Below are positions 45,465 to 57,583 of a stretch of 64,000 bases of DNA, piece after piece. The notes under the pieces were generated by a model, which searched no databases, was not told the DNA's origin, and saw only the letters and a list, made by a program, of their open reading frames with translations. Numbering within the stretch: position 1 is the stretch's first letter; the number at the start of each line of letters is the position of its first letter. Source of the stretch: Shigella phage Sf19; the sequence record MF327005; one strand, 5' to 3'. The position numbers and the translations under genes are program-made.

Positions 45465-45735
45465 AGAACAATGGGATATCAAAGAGCTTATTAGCGAAGC
45501 TGGAAATGGTAGTGAGATGTATATGATACGTGGTCACGTCCCAGATGCACTTGCTATTGAGATGATAGACCACTACTCCAACGGATTCTATAAAGAGTTT
45601 GGAGAGCCAAATATTGAACGTACTTGGACAAAACCAGTACCAGACGGAACAGGAAACTGTTCAGTTATCTACCACATTGTAGACCCAAAGAAATGTAAAT
45701 CAGCTATGGCTGTAACATTTGTAACTTTTGACTGA
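45457..45735 (+). CDS. hypothetical protein
   Basis: Start set at ATG 45457 overlapping upstream stop. Confidence 0.4.
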   Translation: MAREQWDIKELISEAGNGSEMYMIRGHVPDALAIEMIDHYSNGFYKEFGEPNIERTWTKPVPDGTGNCSVIYHIVDPKKCKSAMAVTFVTFD

Positions 45736-45745
45736 GAGATATATT

Positions 45746-46627
45746 ATGAAAACTACTATTCGAGTTCTACTTAATTCAAATTCCAAAGGTTCTCATCAAG
45801 AGACCTTCAACATTATCCAGTTCCCTTCTGGGGAGATTGGTGGTAACTTCTCAGAAGACTTAGTAGGCTTTGTTGAACATGCTGCTGGTAAGATTGAAAA
45901 TGTTATCTTCACTGTACAAGGTTATGACAAAGACACACTCTTTGCATTGGCTATGGCTAAAGAGGCTATTGACCGCTTGATTCCTCAGAAAGCAACCATG
46001 AAAACTGTTCTTTTTGGATTCTTACCAAATGCTCGCTATGACCGTCACATGTTTAAAGGTGATGCAGCAGCACTTAAAGTCTTTGCAAATCTTGTAAATG
46101 CTATGGAGTTCGATGCAGTATGTGCTCTGGATACTCACAGTAATGTTGCAGAGAATTTGTTTAAGAGCTTCTACAACCTCCCTCAAAAAGAGGCAGCAGT
46201 CCACTTTGCAAGTGACCCACGCATTGATTACTTAGTGGCTCCAGATGCAGGTGCAGCTAAGAAGACTGAAGAGGCTGCTAAAGAGGTTGAGAAACCTTAT
46301 ATTACAATGGCGAAGGTACGAAACCTGAAAACTGGTGAAATCACTGGTATGCGCATCCTTGATGATGTAGACTTAACAGGTAAGACTGTTATGATTCTGG
46401 ATGATATCTGTGATGGTGGTCGAACCTTTATCGAGGCTGCAAAGTATCTTCGTGAAGCTGGAGCAGAACGTGTAGAGCTTTATGTTACTCATGGGATTTT
46501 CTCTAAAGGTGTTGAAAATCTCCTTGACAATGGTATCGACCATATCTACACTACAAACTCACTAGGGGATGAAAAAGACCGTGGTCTTTCCCACTTCTCA
46601 CAAGTGACCGTAGCAAATATTGAATAA
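45746..46627 (+). CDS. ribose-phosphate pyrophosphokinase-like protein (PRPP synthetase family)
   Basis: PRTase loop VMILDDICDGGRT, FPSGE (cf. Prs RFSDGE), DTHS (cf. DLHA); start set at ATG 45746. Confidence 0.6.
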   Translation: MKTTIRVLLNSNSKGSHQETFNIIQFPSGEIGGNFSEDLVGFVEHAAGKIENVIFTVQGYDKDTLFALAMAKEAIDRLIPQKATMKTVLFGFLPNARYDRHMFKGDAAALKVFANLVNAMEFDAVCALDTHSNVAENLFKSFYNLPQKEAAVHFASDPRIDYLVAPDAGAAKKTEEAAKEVEKPYITMAKVRNLKTGEITGMRILDDVDLTGKTVMILDDICDGGRTFIEAAKYLREAGAERVELYVTHGIFSKGVENLLDNGIDHIYTTNSLGDEKDRGLSHFSQVTVANIE

Positions 46628-46671: not shown

Positions 46672-48489
46672 ATGACTAAATCAATCTATGCAGTACCAGC
46701 AGGTCTTAATGCAGATGCTTATAAAGCGGGTCATATCTATCAGTATCCAGATGCTACACAGTATCTTATGTTGAACTTAACACCTCGTGGAGATAAATGG
46801 TTTAACTCTCCGTTAGAGATTGATGGTGTTGTAGCTTTTGGTATTCAGCGTTTTGTAAAAGACTATCTGGTAGACCACTGGAATGCAACGTTCTTTGAAC
46901 GTGATAAGAAAGAAGCCATTGACGAAATCTTGGAAATCATGAATGGTGTCCTTGGTGCAGATGCTATTGGTCGTCAACATTGGGAAGAACTTCATGACTT
47001 GGGTTACCTGCCTGTTGAAGTCTACTCTGTAGAGGAAGGTACAATTGTCCCTATGCGTGTCCCGATGATTGTCTTCAAAAACACTGTAGAAGGATTCCAT
47101 TGGGTAGCTGGTTATCTTGAAGATGCTTTCTCTGCTGAAATCTGGAAGGCTTGTACGATTGCAACTATTGCACTGCATTACAAACGTATCTGTAAGCAAT
47201 GGGCTGATAAGACCTGTGACAATGACTTCCATTTACCTTGGCAGTGTCATGACTTTGCAATGCGTGGTATGTCTGGCTTCACAGATGATGCGTTTAACGC
47301 AGTAGGTCACCTGACAAGTTTTAAAGGTACTGACAGCTTCCCTGCTGTATATACAGCTAAACGTGCATATGGTCAGTTTATGAATGTAGGTGAGATTGGT
47401 AACTCTGTCCCGGCTACTGAGCACTCTGTGATGTGTGCAAACATCTCATGGAACAGTCTTAACAAAGAGGTAAGTGATTGGCATCTATCGCATTCTGACA
47501 ACTTACTTGATGCAATGCGTTGGCGTGGTGAGGTAGAAACTTTCCATCGCCTTCTGACAGAAGTTTACCCAACTGGTATTGCAAGTGCCGTATCAGATAC
47601 TTACAACTTCTGGCGTACTGTTACACAGATTCTGCCAGAGCTACGTAATGTAATCCTGAATCGTGATGGTAAGTTGGTAATCCGTCCAGACTCTGGAGAC
47701 CCTGTTCACATTGTCACAGGTTACAAAGCCATTGAATGGGAAACTGCTAAGTCAATGTTCTATAAGCACATGAAAGAGCTTGCACCGAACAATACACATC
47801 TGCATGACACAATCTTGAATTGTGAAATGTCTGATATTGGCTTTGGGTTCTCTGCTTGGCTAATCTCTGAAGGTTATGAGATGGTTGTTGATAAAGAAGA
47901 TTTTGAATCTGCTGATACAATCAACCTTATTACTGCTCAGAAGACTGGACAGTTTACTGTGAAGCGTATGCTGACAGCAGAAATTGACGGAGCTATCCAC
48001 ACGCTGTATAACATCTTTGGTGGCACTGTTAACTCCAAAGGGTACAAAGTACTGGATGAGCACATTGGGCTAATCTACGGTGATTCTATCACTCTGGAAA
48101 GGGCTAATGAGATTCTGTCACGTCTTGCTGATAAAGGTTTTGCAAGTTCTAACGTAGTGTTTGGTGTAGGCTCATACACCTATCAGTACCTGACTCGTGA
48201 CACCTTTGCATTTGCTGTTAAAGCAACTCTTGCACAGATGGATGGTCAAGAAATTATGCTGGCTAAAGACCCTAAAACTGACAGTGGTCTTAAGAAGTCT
48301 GCTTTTGGTGGAGTTGTCCCTATGTGGGATGGTGACAAGCTGGTAGCTGTAGATGGTTTTGGCTTTGCAGAGTTTGAAGGTGCAATTGACAACTGTCATA
48401 GTGCTTTGAAACTGGTATTTAGCAACTCGCAACCTTATGGTTACATTAACCTGCGCGATGTTCGAAATACTATTGACAAGCAACTTTAA
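46672..48489 (+). CDS. nadV: nicotinamide phosphoribosyltransferase-like protein (NAMPT/NadV family)
   Basis: Blocks matching NAMPT as recalled: HDFAMRGMSG, FKGTDS, VPATEHSV, VSDTYN, VIRPDSGDP, YGDSI, FGVGSYTYQYLTRD. Confidence 0.85.
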   Translation: MTKSIYAVPAGLNADAYKAGHIYQYPDATQYLMLNLTPRGDKWFNSPLEIDGVVAFGIQRFVKDYLVDHWNATFFERDKKEAIDEILEIMNGVLGADAIGRQHWEELHDLGYLPVEVYSVEEGTIVPMRVPMIVFKNTVEGFHWVAGYLEDAFSAEIWKACTIATIALHYKRICKQWADKTCDNDFHLPWQCHDFAMRGMSGFTDDAFNAVGHLTSFKGTDSFPAVYTAKRAYGQFMNVGEIGNSVPATEHSVMCANISWNSLNKEVSDWHLSHSDNLLDAMRWRGEVETFHRLLTEVYPTGIASAVSDTYNFWRTVTQILPELRNVILNRDGKLVIRPDSGDPVHIVTGYKAIEWETAKSMFYKHMKELAPNNTHLHDTILNCEMSDIGFGFSAWLISEGYEMVVDKEDFESADTINLITAQKTGQFTVKRMLTAEIDGAIHTLYNIFGGTVNSKGYKVLDEHIGLIYGDSITLERANEILSRLADKGFASSNVVFGVGSYTYQYLTRDTFAFAVKATLAQMDGQEIMLAKDPKTDSGLKKSAFGGVVPMWDGDKLVAVDGFGFAEFEGAIDNCHSALKLVFSNSQPYGYINLRDVRNTIDKQL

Positions 48490-49101: not shown

Positions 49102-50607
49102 ATGCGCATGGTAAATGACCACGCAACGGTAATTAAAAGCTCAAGTACACTGGAAACCTCTCAGGCTCAGATTAAGATGACACCTGAAATGTTCAGTCTT
49201 CTAAGCTCAGGTGTTTACACATATAAAGAACGTGCTGTAATTCGTGAATTGTCATGTAACGCAGTAGATGCTCACATTGATTCTGGTAACGTTGATAAAC
49301 CTTTCTTGGTTCACTTACCAACTCGTTTCGAGCCATTCTTTGAAGTTCGTGACTTTGGTACAGGACTGACTCATGATAAAGTTATGAAACTTTACATGAC
49401 CTATGGAGAATCTACAAAGAACGATTCAAACGACTACATTGGTGCTATGGGTATCGGTTCAAAGTCCCCATTTGCAATTGCTCAGTCATTCACTGTATCA
49501 AGCTATGTTGATGGTGTAGTTAACAAATACTCAGTTTACCTTGAGAATGGTATCCCTCAAGTAACTAAGTTGACTACTAACCCAACTACAGAGCCAAATG
49601 GTTTAGCTGTTCGAGTAGCGGTATCCGATAACCGTATCAACAAGTTTCATGAAGAAGCGAGCAATGTATACTCGTACTTTAAAGTTAAGCCAGAGTGTAA
49701 TGTTGAGTACTATGACATTCTTGAAGCAATGACTTCCATTTCTCGTGAAGATGGTGTCTATGATGCAATGAAGTACAAAGAGAACTGGCGTTCAAATAGT
49801 AACAGTGTCCATTTCAATGTAATCATGGGTAATATTGCTTATCCTGTTGAAATGGGTGAGTTGCTTGGTTCAGAGTTTACAAGCATTCTGCCTCAGTTCT
49901 TCCGTAGTGCTGTAGACCTTGTTAACATCTACATGCCAATTGGTTCAGTGGCTATTGCTGCATCTCGTGAAGCATTGCAGATGAATGAGACCACTAAGAC
50001 CAAGATTGTTGAAGCTGTGAAGAAAATCACTAAGACAATCGTAGAAGATGTGGTAAAAGAGATTGCTAACAAGCCAACTCTGATTGATGCTGCTCAAGCC
50101 TATGATACCATGAGGAAGGAGGCTCGTGAAATCTTTATTCACGTCCAAGATTCTCTGGAATGGCAAGGCCAGAACTTGAAAAAACTTGAACAAAAACTGT
50201 TAGGTATCCGTCGTGGTCAGTTAACTGAAGCAGATGGTTCTCCGTCATTCTTGAAAGATGATGCAGGTAACTTGAGGCTTGACAAAGATGGTAATCCAGT
50301 TCCTAATATTGGTAATCTGTATGAACCTGTAGCATACTACAAGTACAGCAGTCTGGAGAACCGTATTCGAGCAACTTCAGCAACTTATTCACAAGATGCA
50401 GCAATGTTTAGTATCTTTGGTGCAATGAGTAAAGATAAGTTGAGCAACTATTTGTTCCTTATCAATGACCGTCGAAACAAGAACGGGTCTGAGAAGACAA
50501 CTGGTAAAAACCAGATTATCCGTGGAGCTTGCCGTGACCGTGAACAGGAAGACTCTAACTTCCGTCGCTACAACGGTATTGCTTTCTTGTTCAGCAGTCA
50601 GCAGTAA
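49102..50607 (+). CDS. GHKL-ATPase domain protein, rIIA-like
   Basis: Bergerat-fold motifs: N-box ELSCNAVDA, G1 RDFGTGL, G2 GAMGIGSKS; rIIA assignment from memory. Confidence 0.5.
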   Translation: MRMVNDHATVIKSSSTLETSQAQIKMTPEMFSLLSSGVYTYKERAVIRELSCNAVDAHIDSGNVDKPFLVHLPTRFEPFFEVRDFGTGLTHDKVMKLYMTYGESTKNDSNDYIGAMGIGSKSPFAIAQSFTVSSYVDGVVNKYSVYLENGIPQVTKLTTNPTTEPNGLAVRVAVSDNRINKFHEEASNVYSYFKVKPECNVEYYDILEAMTSISREDGVYDAMKYKENWRSNSNSVHFNVIMGNIAYPVEMGELLGSEFTSILPQFFRSAVDLVNIYMPIGSVAIAASREALQMNETTKTKIVEAVKKITKTIVEDVVKEIANKPTLIDAAQAYDTMRKEAREIFIHVQDSLEWQGQNLKKLEQKLLGIRRGQLTEADGSPSFLKDDAGNLRLDKDGNPVPNIGNLYEPVAYYKYSSLENRIRATSATYSQDAAMFSIFGAMSKDKLSNYLFLINDRRNKNGSEKTTGKNQIIRGACRDREQEDSNFRRYNGIAFLFSSQQ

Positions 50608-50631
50608 TTCGATGAGTTTGTAGATTTGCAT

Positions 50632-51474
50632 ATGCTTGACAAGAGTCTGTTAAGTGTGCATACAATGTCATCTAAAGAGCACCACTATGAGAAACGTACT
50701 ATTGTACGTGGTGTTGTAAAACTGTATAAAGCATTTATATGTCCAAATACTGACATGATTCGCTATACAGAGGTTAAAGAGAACTTTGATGAGATTGAAG
50801 AACCACAACTGTATATCAAAGCACAGAGTGATGAAGTGATTGGTGGAATCTTCTCATGTTCACCAGAACGTGCTGCAACGTTGATGACAGAGTTAACTGG
50901 ACAGTCAGTTTATGTCTTCCGTAAAGCCAACTGGAAAAAGATTCCTGAAGACTGGACAGAAGTCAATGAACAAGTGATGAAAGATTTTATTGATAATACT
51001 CATTGGATTGAGTATCACCGTTACTTGACTCACCAATATATGACTAATAATCATGATATCACTGATTGTAATGTGATTTCTCGAAACTTTATGTTTGCTG
51101 ATAAGCGTAAGTCCAGAGGCCACATTTACAGTAAAGACTTTAAGAAGACTATTTTCTTAGAGGGGAATGAAGAGGCTATAGAAGCAATGTTTGGACGCTT
51201 GGCATATACTGCTGCACCAGTTGCTTACAAAGATATTACCAGCACTCTTGATACCATTCGTAGGAATATGAGAGGTTCTTGTAAGCCAAGAAAGGTTCTG
51301 GATAATGCTAAGAAGCGTCTTGAAAGCAAGTTCAAAGATTACTTTGAGAAACGCCGTAAAGAAAACTTCTTGCTTTCTAATCTGGATTGGAATAAAGTAT
51401 CACCAGTCGAAGTTGGTAAGTTTTTAGGTTTTGACACTAAGAGCATTCCAGAAGATACTGTATGCTGGGATTAA
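50632..51474 (+). CDS. hypothetical protein (possible rIIB-like partner)
   Basis: 282-aa ORF directly downstream of rIIA-like gene; start uncertain (ATG 50632 or 50665). Confidence 0.35.
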   Translation: MLDKSLLSVHTMSSKEHHYEKRTIVRGVVKLYKAFICPNTDMIRYTEVKENFDEIEEPQLYIKAQSDEVIGGIFSCSPERAATLMTELTGQSVYVFRKANWKKIPEDWTEVNEQVMKDFIDNTHWIEYHRYLTHQYMTNNHDITDCNVISRNFMFADKRKSRGHIYSKDFKKTIFLEGNEEAIEAMFGRLAYTAAPVAYKDITSTLDTIRRNMRGSCKPRKVLDNAKKRLESKFKDYFEKRRKENFLLSNLDWNKVSPVEVGKFLGFDTKSIPEDTVCWD

Positions 51475-55883: not shown

Positions 55884-56076
55884 TTTCTGCACTAAGTGTT
55901 CTGTTGAGATGTTTGGAAAAGATACAGGAGACTTAAAAGGTCTCTTTACAAAAGCAGAGTTTGAAGCTGGTTCAGCAATGCCAGTAATCTGTGAAGGCTG
56001 TGGTGCTTTATGGGTAGACCATGAAGGTAACCGAGTTAAACCCTCTGAAGATAACGAACGTTGGGAGCATTACTAA
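55876..56076 (+). CDS. small zinc-ribbon protein
   Basis: 66 aa with CTKCS...CEGCG. Confidence 0.4.
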   Translation: MADFCTKCSVEMFGKDTGDLKGLFTKAEFEAGSAMPVICEGCGALWVDHEGNRVKPSEDNERWEHY

Positions 56077-56077
56077 T

Positions 56078-56872
56078 ATGGGTATCGTAAAAATTATTAA
56101 AGGTGATATCTTTAAAGACTTTGATGGTAAGAAGTTTGATATCATTGGTCACGGTTGTAACTGCATGAACTTGATGGGTTCAGGTATCGCAGCAACAATT
56201 GCTAAACGCTACCCAAAAGCTTATGAAACTGACGCTGAGGTTTATGCTACAGTAGGTGGTGAAAATCATAACCCTAAGCACCTAATGCTTGGTAACATCT
56301 CTGTAGCACGTTTTAAGCAGGGTCGGATTGCTAACCTTTATACTCAGGTTATCACTGGCAAAGATGCACGGTACAATGCTTTAGAAGCAGCTTTGCAGCG
56401 TCTGAATAATTACTGCAAAGTCAACCAACTTAAGAAAGTTGGGCTTCCTATGATTTGTGCAGGGATTGGTGGTCTTGATAGTATGGCTGTGCTGTCCATT
56501 ATTAATCAGACTATGAAAGATGTTGACGTATATATGTATGTCTATGAAGATAAGATGTACAGTCAGTTGACTAGTCCTGTTACTGGTTGGGAGAACTTCA
56601 GTGAGCCTCAATATTTTGATGGTGTTGCTGTGGTAGGCAAGGATAAAGTTACCCTCAAGGTGAAGCGTAATGGCAAGGTACACACCAGTTACCCTCCGGT
56701 TGAGAAGTACAATCGAAGTAACGCTCAAGTTACCCACCCGTTACAAGGTCACCACCACAGAGCGGTAACGTTTGGTGATGATGCAAGTGTGTATATCAAT
56801 GCGACTACAGAAGAGTTTGCAGAAGATTATATCACACATGAAAACGTAAACTATGTTGAAGCACGTAACTAA
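56078..56872 (+). CDS. macro-domain-like protein with C-terminal extension
   Basis: IIKGDIF...FDIIGHGCNCMNLMGSGIAATIAKRYP matches macro pattern (GDIT...NAAN...GGGVA.AI) loosely; start set at ATG 56078. Confidence 0.45.
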   Translation: MGIVKIIKGDIFKDFDGKKFDIIGHGCNCMNLMGSGIAATIAKRYPKAYETDAEVYATVGGENHNPKHLMLGNISVARFKQGRIANLYTQVITGKDARYNALEAALQRLNNYCKVNQLKKVGLPMICAGIGGLDSMAVLSIINQTMKDVDVYMYVYEDKMYSQLTSPVTGWENFSEPQYFDGVAVVGKDKVTLKVKRNGKVHTSYPPVEKYNRSNAQVTHPLQGHHHRAVTFGDDASVYINATTEEFAEDYITHENVNYVEARN

Positions 56873-56901
56873 TAAGTTACCCAGATAAACATAGACAAGC
56901 C

Positions 56902-57125
56902 CTCCAAAGTTTGAGTTTAAAATCTCAGGTAAGGGGGGCTTTTTCATTTTAAATTTGTGCAGGTATAGTTGCATAGAACTCTGGACAGATTTCTTTAGCT
57001 GAACTCCAAAGGGAAAATTCATTTCAAATTTGTGCAGGTTTAGACTCCAAAGAGCTTTTTCATTTTCAATCTGTGCAGATGCAGTTGGACTCCAAAGGGA
57101 AAATTCATTTTCAAATTGTGCAGGT
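56902..57125. repeat. four tandem direct repeats, iteron-like
   Basis: Units at ~56902-56964, 57004-57039, 57045-57080, 57090-57125, each CTCCAAAG...TTTCATTT(T)CAA(A)TTTGTGCAGGT; followed by C-rich tract 57142-57178. Confidence 0.7.
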
Positions 57126-57298: not shown

Positions 57299-57327
57299 TT
57301 GACTTCATAAATCCAGTCTTATAGTAT
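57299..57327 (+). promoter_or_regulatory. early promoter class I (TTGACT-17-TAGTAT)
   Basis: Followed by ..CATCAACGGGAAACATCCC hairpin and conserved leader AACAATCCTAAACTGGAGAATCTAAAAATG. Confidence 0.55.
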
Positions 57328-57376: not shown

Positions 57377-57583
57377 ATGTTATATCAACGTGAGTTAATG
57401 ATTGTTGACAACAACAAAACAAATAAACGTCGTTTCTATATGCTAATTTGTGATGTTTGGCAACGTATCTCAGAAAAGGATTTTGATGAATATGTTGATA
57501 CGTCAATCAGGTCTGATTGTTATTTGACAACTCATACAAGACAGTTTACAAGGCATACAGCAATTTATTATTACAACGTTTAA
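57377..57583 (+). CDS. early small protein
   Basis: 68-aa ORF after class I promoter-leader, GGAG RBS. Confidence 0.5.
   Translation: MLYQRELMIVDNNKTNKRRFYMLICDVWQRISEKDFDEYVDTSIRSDCYLTTHTRQFTRHTAIYYYNV

Follow-up and report, generated by a model that had tools for sequence, protein, structure and literature searches.

A two-domain, AdfM-like macrodomain protein with an orphan C-terminal domain in Shigella phage Sf19

Stand-alone macrodomain proteins were recently established as a counter-defence family of phages. A transposon screen singled out tk.4 as the only T4 gene required on a DarTG2 host; T4 with a clean tk.4 knock-out was sensitive to DarTG2, and the gene was named adfM (anti-DarT factor macrodomain; bioRxiv 10.1101/2025.11.20.689424). 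The PhiKZ protein gp104, also an AdfM, removes DarT2-made ADP-ribose from DNA and protects chimalliviruses against DarTG2 (PMC13309987). The bacterial enzyme SCO6735 is efficient at cleaving ADP-ribose from DNA thymidines and shields cells against DarT; its Gln85 replaces the usual lysine and is essential, Asn27 positions Gln85, and the Q85A and N27S variants are inactive (PMC9411070). Reversal of ADP-ribosyl-thymidine is an activity common to the tested enzymes of this class, SCO6735, TARG1 and DarG (PMC9411070). Here we describe a gene of Shigella phage Sf19 (record MF327005), analysed within a stretch of 64 000 nucleotides (the window), the product of which joins a macrodomain of this class to a C-terminal domain of no recognisable family.

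The gene is a complete coding sequence (CDS) of 264 amino acids plus stop codon on the plus strand at 56078–56872, and all of its parts given below are on the same strand. It encodes a two-domain macro protein of AdfM-like type that is 100% identical to YP_009618797.1 of Shigella phage Sf17 (Mooglevirus, Ounavirinae). Residues 1–165 (56078–56572) are a macrodomain of the ALC1-like class (TARG1/DarG/SCO6735/Poa1p) and of Gln type, as assigned from Pfam, DarG models, a profile search of the PDB, structure prediction and identity to T4 Tk.4. The Pfam family PF01661 (Macro) was matched at 30.7 bits, above its gathering score of 22 (E = 3.3e-7), over residues 25–141 and profile positions 2–117 of 118. 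The best matches in the curated and defence libraries were DarG models, from NCBIfam (NF048014, E = 4.6e-13) and PADLOC (E = 1.6e-13, profile positions 5–147 of 329), both confined to the macro part. NF048014 describes the full-length DarG2 equivalog with its C-terminal DarT-binding domain, and here the match reached 49.2 bits against a cut-off of 250, covering profile positions 2–153 of 338 only.

A family profile was built from 16 members and run against the PDB sequences. The top 14 distinct sequences were all TARG1, Poa1p, DarG, BT1257 or SCO6735 (9e-15 to 2.6e-10): TARG1 at 9e-15, Poa1p at 1.4e-14, Mycobacterium tuberculosis DarG at 2.4e-13, BT1257 at 4e-13, SCO6735 at 5.8e-12 and Thermus aquaticus DarG at 2.6e-10. 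MacroD-like, coronavirus and alphavirus macrodomains scored far lower (1e-5 or worse). With the single sequence as query, the best PDB match was yeast Poa1p (E = 5e-5), mainly over residues 4–60. An AlphaFold2 (AF2) model of the full protein had a predicted local distance difference test (pLDDT) score of 79.8, with residues 1–165 in the three-layer alpha/beta/alpha macro fold. Foldseek related this model to TARG1, DarG, Poa1p and viral macrodomains with a probability of 1.00 and target template-modelling (TM) scores of 0.75–0.87; the top ranks were taken by TARG1 (0.83–0.87), DarG (0.82–0.83) and Poa1p (0.75–0.77). Residues 1–165 are thus a genuine macrodomain, far beyond chance, and belong to the ALC1-like class because the closest relatives by profile and by fold are TARG1, DarG, Poa1p and SCO6735. 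The initial annotation had proposed that the N-terminal ~170 residues loosely match the macro fold, to be checked by profile search and structure prediction. Both recovered the fold, with TM scores of 0.82–0.87 to TARG1 and DarG; given the Pfam, DarG-model, PDB-profile and Foldseek scores the match is solid, and the word 'loosely' can be dropped.

The nearest characterized phage protein is T4 Tk.4. The macro part was found by tblastn in 2,755 of 50,697 phage records, many of them T4-like and matching tk.4, and T4 Tk.4 shares 40% identity with the Sf19 macro part over 136 amino acids (E = 1e-18). Both proteins carry HGCNC, MGSGxA, NLYTQ (the Gln type) and PxIGAGIG, and both are encoded by stand-alone phage genes with no toxin adjoining. 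Tk.4, annotated as 'contains A1pp phosphatase motif', has 155 residues and consists of the macrodomain only, whereas the Sf19 protein adds a linker and an orphan domain of ~85 residues. PHROG 335, which matches the Sf19 protein over its full length (E = 2.4e-105), also contains T4 Tk.4 and PhiKZ gp104. The latter is likewise an orphan DarG2-like macrodomain of a phage; unlike the Sf19 protein, with which it shares 19% identity, it is of the Lys type (K78 in FPTK), is imported into the phage nucleus and lacks a C-terminal domain. The Sf19 gene therefore codes for a stand-alone phage macrodomain homologous to a validated AdfM (T4 Tk.4; PHROG 335), and it is a member of the AdfM family, of the Tk.4/Gln type, with a lineage-specific extra domain.

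Outside phages the comparison is with DarG2 and SCO6735. Bacterial DarG2 (T. aquaticus, PDB entry 5M3E; M. tuberculosis, PDB entry 5M3I) shares with the Sf19 protein the macro class, the fold at the TM scores given above and the Asn equivalent to N22. It differs in having NFPTK/FPTK in place of NLYTQ, so that the catalytic lysine (K80 in T. aquaticus DarG) is absent here. No darT gene adjoins the Sf19 gene, the neighbours of which are phage genes (small open reading frames, spanins, rIIA and rIIB) followed by a terminator. Streptomyces coelicolor SCO6735 (PDB entry 5E3B) is ALC1-like and likewise has Gln for the catalytic Lys together with the conserved Asn; unlike the phage protein, it is a single-domain housekeeping or stress protein of a bacterium. 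Human TARG1 (OARD1) and yeast Poa1p are among the top profile and fold matches, and the TARG1 catalytic dyad K84/D125 corresponds to Q90/G131 in the Sf19 protein.

Invariant in the 16 family members are G9, H25-G26-C27-N28, G34, G36, A38, N86, T89-Q90, P124 and G129. From the binding motifs conserved in the family alignment (HGCN, GSGIA and the Gly-rich loop) the macrodomain would be predicted to bind ADP-ribose. Asn28 (codon 56159–56161, in HGCNC) aligns with DarG N22 and SCO6735 N27, an Asn conserved in active macrodomains (PMC9411070, PMC13309987). Gln90 (codon 56345–56347, in NLYTQ) lies at the catalytic Lys position: in the profile alignment NlYTQ falls on yLITK of TARG1, with Q90 on the catalytic K84 and G131 on D125, so that the protein has neither the TARG1 dyad nor the lysine of DarG. 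In SCO6735 the residue equivalent to the catalytic lysines TARG1 K84 and DarG K80 is Q85 (PMC9411070). The equivalence of Q90/N28 to SCO6735 Q85/N27 was drawn via TARG1 K84, without direct structural superposition; the Gln at the catalytic Lys position and the positioning Asn of the SCO6735 type are both present, and both are invariant in the 16 members and in T4 Tk.4.

The Gly-rich diphosphate-binding loop, P124-MICAGIGGL-D134 (56447–56479), was located by alignment with TARG1 and has Gly131 at the place of TARG1 Asp125. Its first Gly (codon 127, 56456–56458) is Cys in the window, in Sf17 and in ESh22 (PMICAGIGG), and Gly in Mordin, Felixounavirus, Harbringer and T4 Tk.4. ESh22 is a second Mooglevirus, only ~81% identical in DNA over this region. 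Since C127 occurs in two diverged Mooglevirus genomes, G127C looks like a tolerated polymorphism, and the idea of an inactivating change private to Sf19 is weakened. The macro part is under strong purifying selection, with pairwise ratios of nonsynonymous to synonymous divergence (dN/dS) of 0.08–0.21 among Mooglevirus and Felixounavirus; against Harbringer the ratios were 0.2–0.38, at saturated dS.

Taking these comparisons together with the published work, we consider it probable that the gene encodes an antitoxin-like orphan enzyme of the AdfM kind, a DNA ADP-ribosyl glycohydrolase that would protect the phage from DarT2. The fold, class, active-site residues, homology to T4 AdfM, conservation and syntenic position were computed directly; from these we infer that the substrate is ADP-ribosyl-thymidine DNA and that the phenotype is anti-DarTG2, as well as whatever role the C-terminal domain may have. 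In a DarTG2 host, DarT2 would ADP-ribosylate thymidines of single-stranded phage DNA and so block replication. The N-terminal macrodomain would hold the ADP-ribose through its HGCN and Gly-rich loops, and the thymine–ribose bond would be hydrolysed by the lysine-independent, Gln-dependent route of SCO6735, in which Asn28 would position Gln90 and water would do the chemistry. Removal of the ADP-ribose would restore the template. ADP-ribosyl-thymidine on single-stranded phage DNA is the likely substrate because the protein is homologous to T4 AdfM, which is genetically required against DarTG2. The suggestion in the initial annotation that the protein serves in reversing ADP-ribosylation agrees with this, and by T4 Tk.4 homology and the SCO6735-type Gln/Asn pair it would be the most likely activity. 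A self-encoded partner, as in T4 Alt/Mod, was also considered; no ADP-ribosyltransferase (ART), NADAR or sirtuin is annotated in the Sf17 genome (annotation only), which makes a host enzyme the likelier opponent.

Several points weigh against a DarT2-directed glycohydrolase. In the phosphate-binding loop Sf19 has Cys127 where Gly is nearly invariant. The protein lacks the catalytic lysine seen in DarG and PhiKZ AdfM, so that the proposed activity is argued from analogy with SCO6735. The Ounavirinae members are known from sequence and model alone, and identity to T4 AdfM is only 40%. The biochemistry of T4 AdfM is itself inferred, the basis being a genetic phenotype described in a preprint (bioRxiv 10.1101/2025.11.20.689424). 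Macrodomains of the ALC1-like class are promiscuous, TARG1 working on proteins and Poa1p on ADP-ribose-1''-phosphate, and sequence does not reveal the substrate. Neither T4 nor PhiKZ AdfM has anything corresponding to the C-terminal domain, a hint that the Sf19 protein does more than a plain AdfM.

This last point bears on a broader or different de-ADP-ribosylase, acting on RNA or on proteins modified by other host ART defences (for example mRNA-modifying CmdT-like toxins). In that case the C-terminal domain would recognise the target and DarT2 would be at most one opponent. PARP1 is a further substrate of SCO6735, and proteins are substrates of TARG1 (PMC9411070); a survey of NAD and ADP-ribose in viruses calls the substrates of viral macrodomains unresolved (PMC9503650); and the faster evolution of the C-terminal domain (dN/dS up to ~0.6) points to an extra specificity for which T4 AdfM has no need. 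We nevertheless regard it as unlikely: DarTG2 is the only phenotype tied by experiment to a close homologue, the best curated matches are DarG models, and nothing in the analysis points to an RNA or protein target. Hydrolysis of a small ADP-ribose derivative is quite improbable. Here the protein would be a Poa1p-like ADP-ribose-1''-phosphate phosphatase, or a hydrolase of O-acetyl-ADP-ribose or of a signal nucleotide, which would clear by-products of RNA repair or degrade immune signals derived from ADP-ribose, possibly returning ADP-ribose to NAD+ salvage. The initial annotation had also put forward the degradation of such signals, for which the analysis gave no specific support. Poa1p is the best single-sequence PDB match (5e-5) and scores 1.4e-14 with the family profile, but TARG1, DarG and SCO6735 score equally or nearly so. 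A gene resembling polynucleotide kinase is found 2 kb upstream, and Prs and Nampt are 8 kb upstream; yet the Sf17 annotation lists no KptA/Tpt1, 2H partner or NMN adenylyltransferase (NMNAT). It has been argued that soluble ADP-ribose derivatives may be preferred by many viral macrodomains (PMC9503650); against this, the name 'phosphatase' is an inherited annotation, and T4 Tk.4 bore the same label although its phenotype is anti-DarTG2.

The active site itself bears on a third reading, in which the macrodomain is a non-catalytic binder or decoy that holds ADP-ribosylated targets or sequesters DarT, the real work being done by the C-terminal domain. The replacement of TARG1 K84 and D125 by Q90 and G131 and the Cys at a nearly invariant Gly would fit it, as would the finding that SCO6735, DarG and TARG1 continue to inhibit DarT through interaction when their catalysis is abolished (PMC9411070). 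It is nonetheless very improbable, given that the Gln-type SCO6735 is highly active and requires its Gln, that strong purifying selection keeps N28, Q90 and the Gly-rich loop unchanged, and that C127, shared with ESh22, looks tolerated.

The macrodomain is joined through a linker (residues 166–178, 56573–56611; low AF2 confidence at residues 173–177) to the orphan C-terminal domain (residues ~179–264, 56612–56869). This domain was modelled with six short beta strands and one helix, with a basic hairpin (KDKVTLKVKRNGKVH) and an acidic tail; it is compact and beta-rich, with pLDDT of ~78–90 both in the full-length model and when predicted alone. In eight close homologues 28 positions are invariant, including SNPPVE, SNAxVT and TFG, and the domain is conserved across Felixounavirus, Mooglevirus and related genera. 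At the same genomic position Erwinia phage Harbringer (Kolesnikvirus) encodes a protein of 255 amino acids, the tail of which is barely alignable. A query coverage of at least 80% was reached by tblastn in 255 of the 2,755 phage records, and among the matches listed at this coverage the best were Ounavirinae, including Mooglevirus, Felixounavirus and Kolesnikvirus.

The initial annotation had described a C-terminal extension of ~100 residues without recognisable family, and the profile, Foldseek and Pfam searches agree. An exhaustive profile search of 1.84 billion representatives with the C-terminal domain returned only its own family, one fragment of a distant homologue and spurious tetratricopeptide (TPR) repeats. 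Foldseek against viral predicted structures gave the SUSP2 orthologue only, Pfam gave nothing significant (best DUF4767 at 0.071 and DUF5997 at 0.24), and the DarG models of NCBIfam and PADLOC do not reach into this domain. A word-index search with the C-terminal 99 residues returned zero matches and missed the protein's own family too, so it is uninformative on absence. The domain is thus apparently lineage-restricted, having been seen in Ounavirinae macro proteins and one metagenomic fragment. The TPR-type matches are two large proteins (P0017 and P0019; 4e-6 and 3e-5, with 7–8 stretches each) in which repeats (...RSRAVTLGDIARIY...) align with a short RAVTFGDDASVYI stretch, the repetition inflating the score. 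They were rejected because a helical-repeat fold is incompatible with the beta-rich model. The metagenomic fragment (P0018, 114 amino acids) was considered as a free-standing C-terminal domain and discarded: it begins with the end of a macrodomain (HNVDVYLYVYDKEM) and is therefore a fragment of a more distant full-length homologue. It keeps only the S-P-V and FG of the SNPPVE and TFG motifs.

With pairwise dN/dS of 0.07–0.67 (dS near saturation in distant pairs), compared with 0.08–0.21 for the macro part, the C-terminal domain is coding and constrained and evolves several times faster than the macrodomain. Its charge pattern of basic hairpin and acidic tail, net ~0, is not kept in the distant homologue and does not decide between a DNA binder and a DNA mimic. 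The HHH run pointed out by the initial annotation is present in Sf19 but is not a conserved motif. The relatives have GHCHR, GHSCR, DHCLR, GSMQR or SNHRI at this site, and for this lack of conservation a metal site was rejected; HHH is specific to Sf19. Two variants were noted among public metagenome proteins: a Felixounavirus homologue of 179 amino acids ending by frameshift just after the macrodomain (P0008, 15 member sequences) and an open reading frame (ORF) of 54 amino acids corresponding to the end of the C-terminal domain (P0016). They are either natural losses of the extra domain or assembly errors.

As a guess, the C-terminal domain could be an accessory module that tethers the enzyme to DNA, DarT2 or another partner. 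A stronger version, which we hold to be doubtful, would make it a second, non-enzymatic counter-defence module that binds and blocks DarT2 or another host ART, or clamps the enzyme on single-stranded DNA or the replisome. If it did block DarT2, it would take the role of the DarG C-terminal domain in a new fold unrelated to it; such a protein would be a convergent 'complete antitoxin mimic' and not a bare eraser, and the faster C-terminal evolution would reflect an arms race at the interface with DarT2 or the partner. Being a compact, conserved orphan domain fused to a probable counter-defence enzyme, it merits attention as a potential new targeting or inhibitor module.

What is new here is the architecture of macrodomain plus C-terminal domain; the kind of counter-defence gene is known. 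The finding is largely ordinary because the gene is already annotated as a macro-domain protein, several GenBank records of relatives naming it 'macro domain-containing protein' or 'contains macro domain (can bind ADP-ribose)', with 'phosphatase' as a further label. The last goes back to the phosphatase activity of Poa1p. Phages of the Felix O1 group are widely used in biocontrol of Salmonella, E. coli and Shigella. If the assignment is true, AdfM counter-defence would extend from T4-like and nucleus-forming jumbo phages to the whole of this group (Ounavirinae), which would help to predict which strains with DarTG2 remain open to infection by Ounavirinae. The lysine-free, Gln-type chemistry of SCO6735 would, moreover, gain support as the common form in phage AdfM. 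The publication of the Bas63 PhageMaP screen does not mention the Felixounavirus homologue.

The coordinates and motifs of the initial annotation were confirmed: the ORF spans exactly 56078–56872, with ATG at 56078 and TAA at 56870–56872 as read from the sequence, and IIKGDIF and FDIIGHGCNCMNLMGSGIAATIAKRYP were both found in the translation. A longer in-frame start at 56021 was rejected; it overlaps the upstream ORF and is unused in GenBank records, and the homologues, T4 Tk.4 included, all start with MGIVKII or MIVKYI. A Shine–Dalgarno-like GGGAG (56063–56067, plus strand) was read 10 nucleotides 5' of the ATG, and a ribosome-binding site is annotated at the equivalent site in the record of phage Mordin. 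The TAA of the preceding small ORF (56074–56076) ends 1 nucleotide before the ATG; with this spacing, translational coupling of the two genes is probable. The DNA around the gene is 97–99.7% identical to that of Mooglevirus phages (Ounavirinae), Sf17 being the closest, and the G+C content of the window is ~39%.

The gene is the last of a co-directional block comprising rIIA, rIIB, a lysozyme-like gene, a polynucleotide-kinase-like gene, spanins and small ORFs. These genes separate it from the module that the initial annotation had linked to it through NAD+ metabolism, and of that link only the location in the same genome arm is left. The module consists of a ribose-phosphate pyrophosphokinase (Prs; Pribosyltran/Pribosyl_synth; 45728–46627) and a nicotinamide phosphoribosyltransferase (Nampt) of 605 amino acids (46672–48489), 8–10 kb upstream. 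No NMN adenylyltransferase is annotated in Sf17, and Prs/Nampt therefore resembles only part of the published NARP2 pathway. Within the intervening block, a C-to-T change at 50605 relative to Sf17 turns CAA into TAA in rIIA (49102–51474), so that the single CDS of 790 codons in Sf17 is split in the window into ORFs at 49102–50607 and 50626–51474. By its sequence, Sf19 has the appearance of an Sf17-like phage with an ochre nonsense mutation in rIIA.

Macro-only relatives (31–41% identity) were noted in two other settings. One (L009, 6001–6486) lies directly upstream of DNA polymerase A on a phage-like metagenomic contig, and the other (L011, 3499–3939) adjoins genes for a single-stranded DNA-binding protein (SSB), YodL and DUF932 in a stretch resembling the leading region of a conjugative element. 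These neighbourhoods are DNA-centred or anti-defence settings with no adjoining darT, which favours the DarT2-directed reading.

Downstream of the macro gene, a hairpin resembling an intrinsic terminator (AAGCCCUCC...GGGGGGCUU) followed by UUUUUC was found at 56897–56947 on the plus strand (RNA fold of -21.5 kcal/mol, z -2.35), and phage AYO145A has an annotated terminator at this position. It stands in a non-coding gap of 500 nucleotides before the next block of small genes. A sigma-70-like promoter site (TTGACT-17-TAGTAT, 57299–57327) precedes the next gene at 57377. Taken together, the hairpin and the promoter-like site place the end of a transcription unit at the macro gene and the start of another block of small genes beyond the gap. 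The gap also holds four direct repeats with a unit of ~43 nucleotides (...GACTCCAAAGGGAAAATTCATTTyAAATTTGTGCAGGT) at 56922–57125 of the window. Outside these repeats their 21-nucleotide core is absent from the window, where chance would give 0 copies; in Citrobacter phage Mordin the core is conserved.

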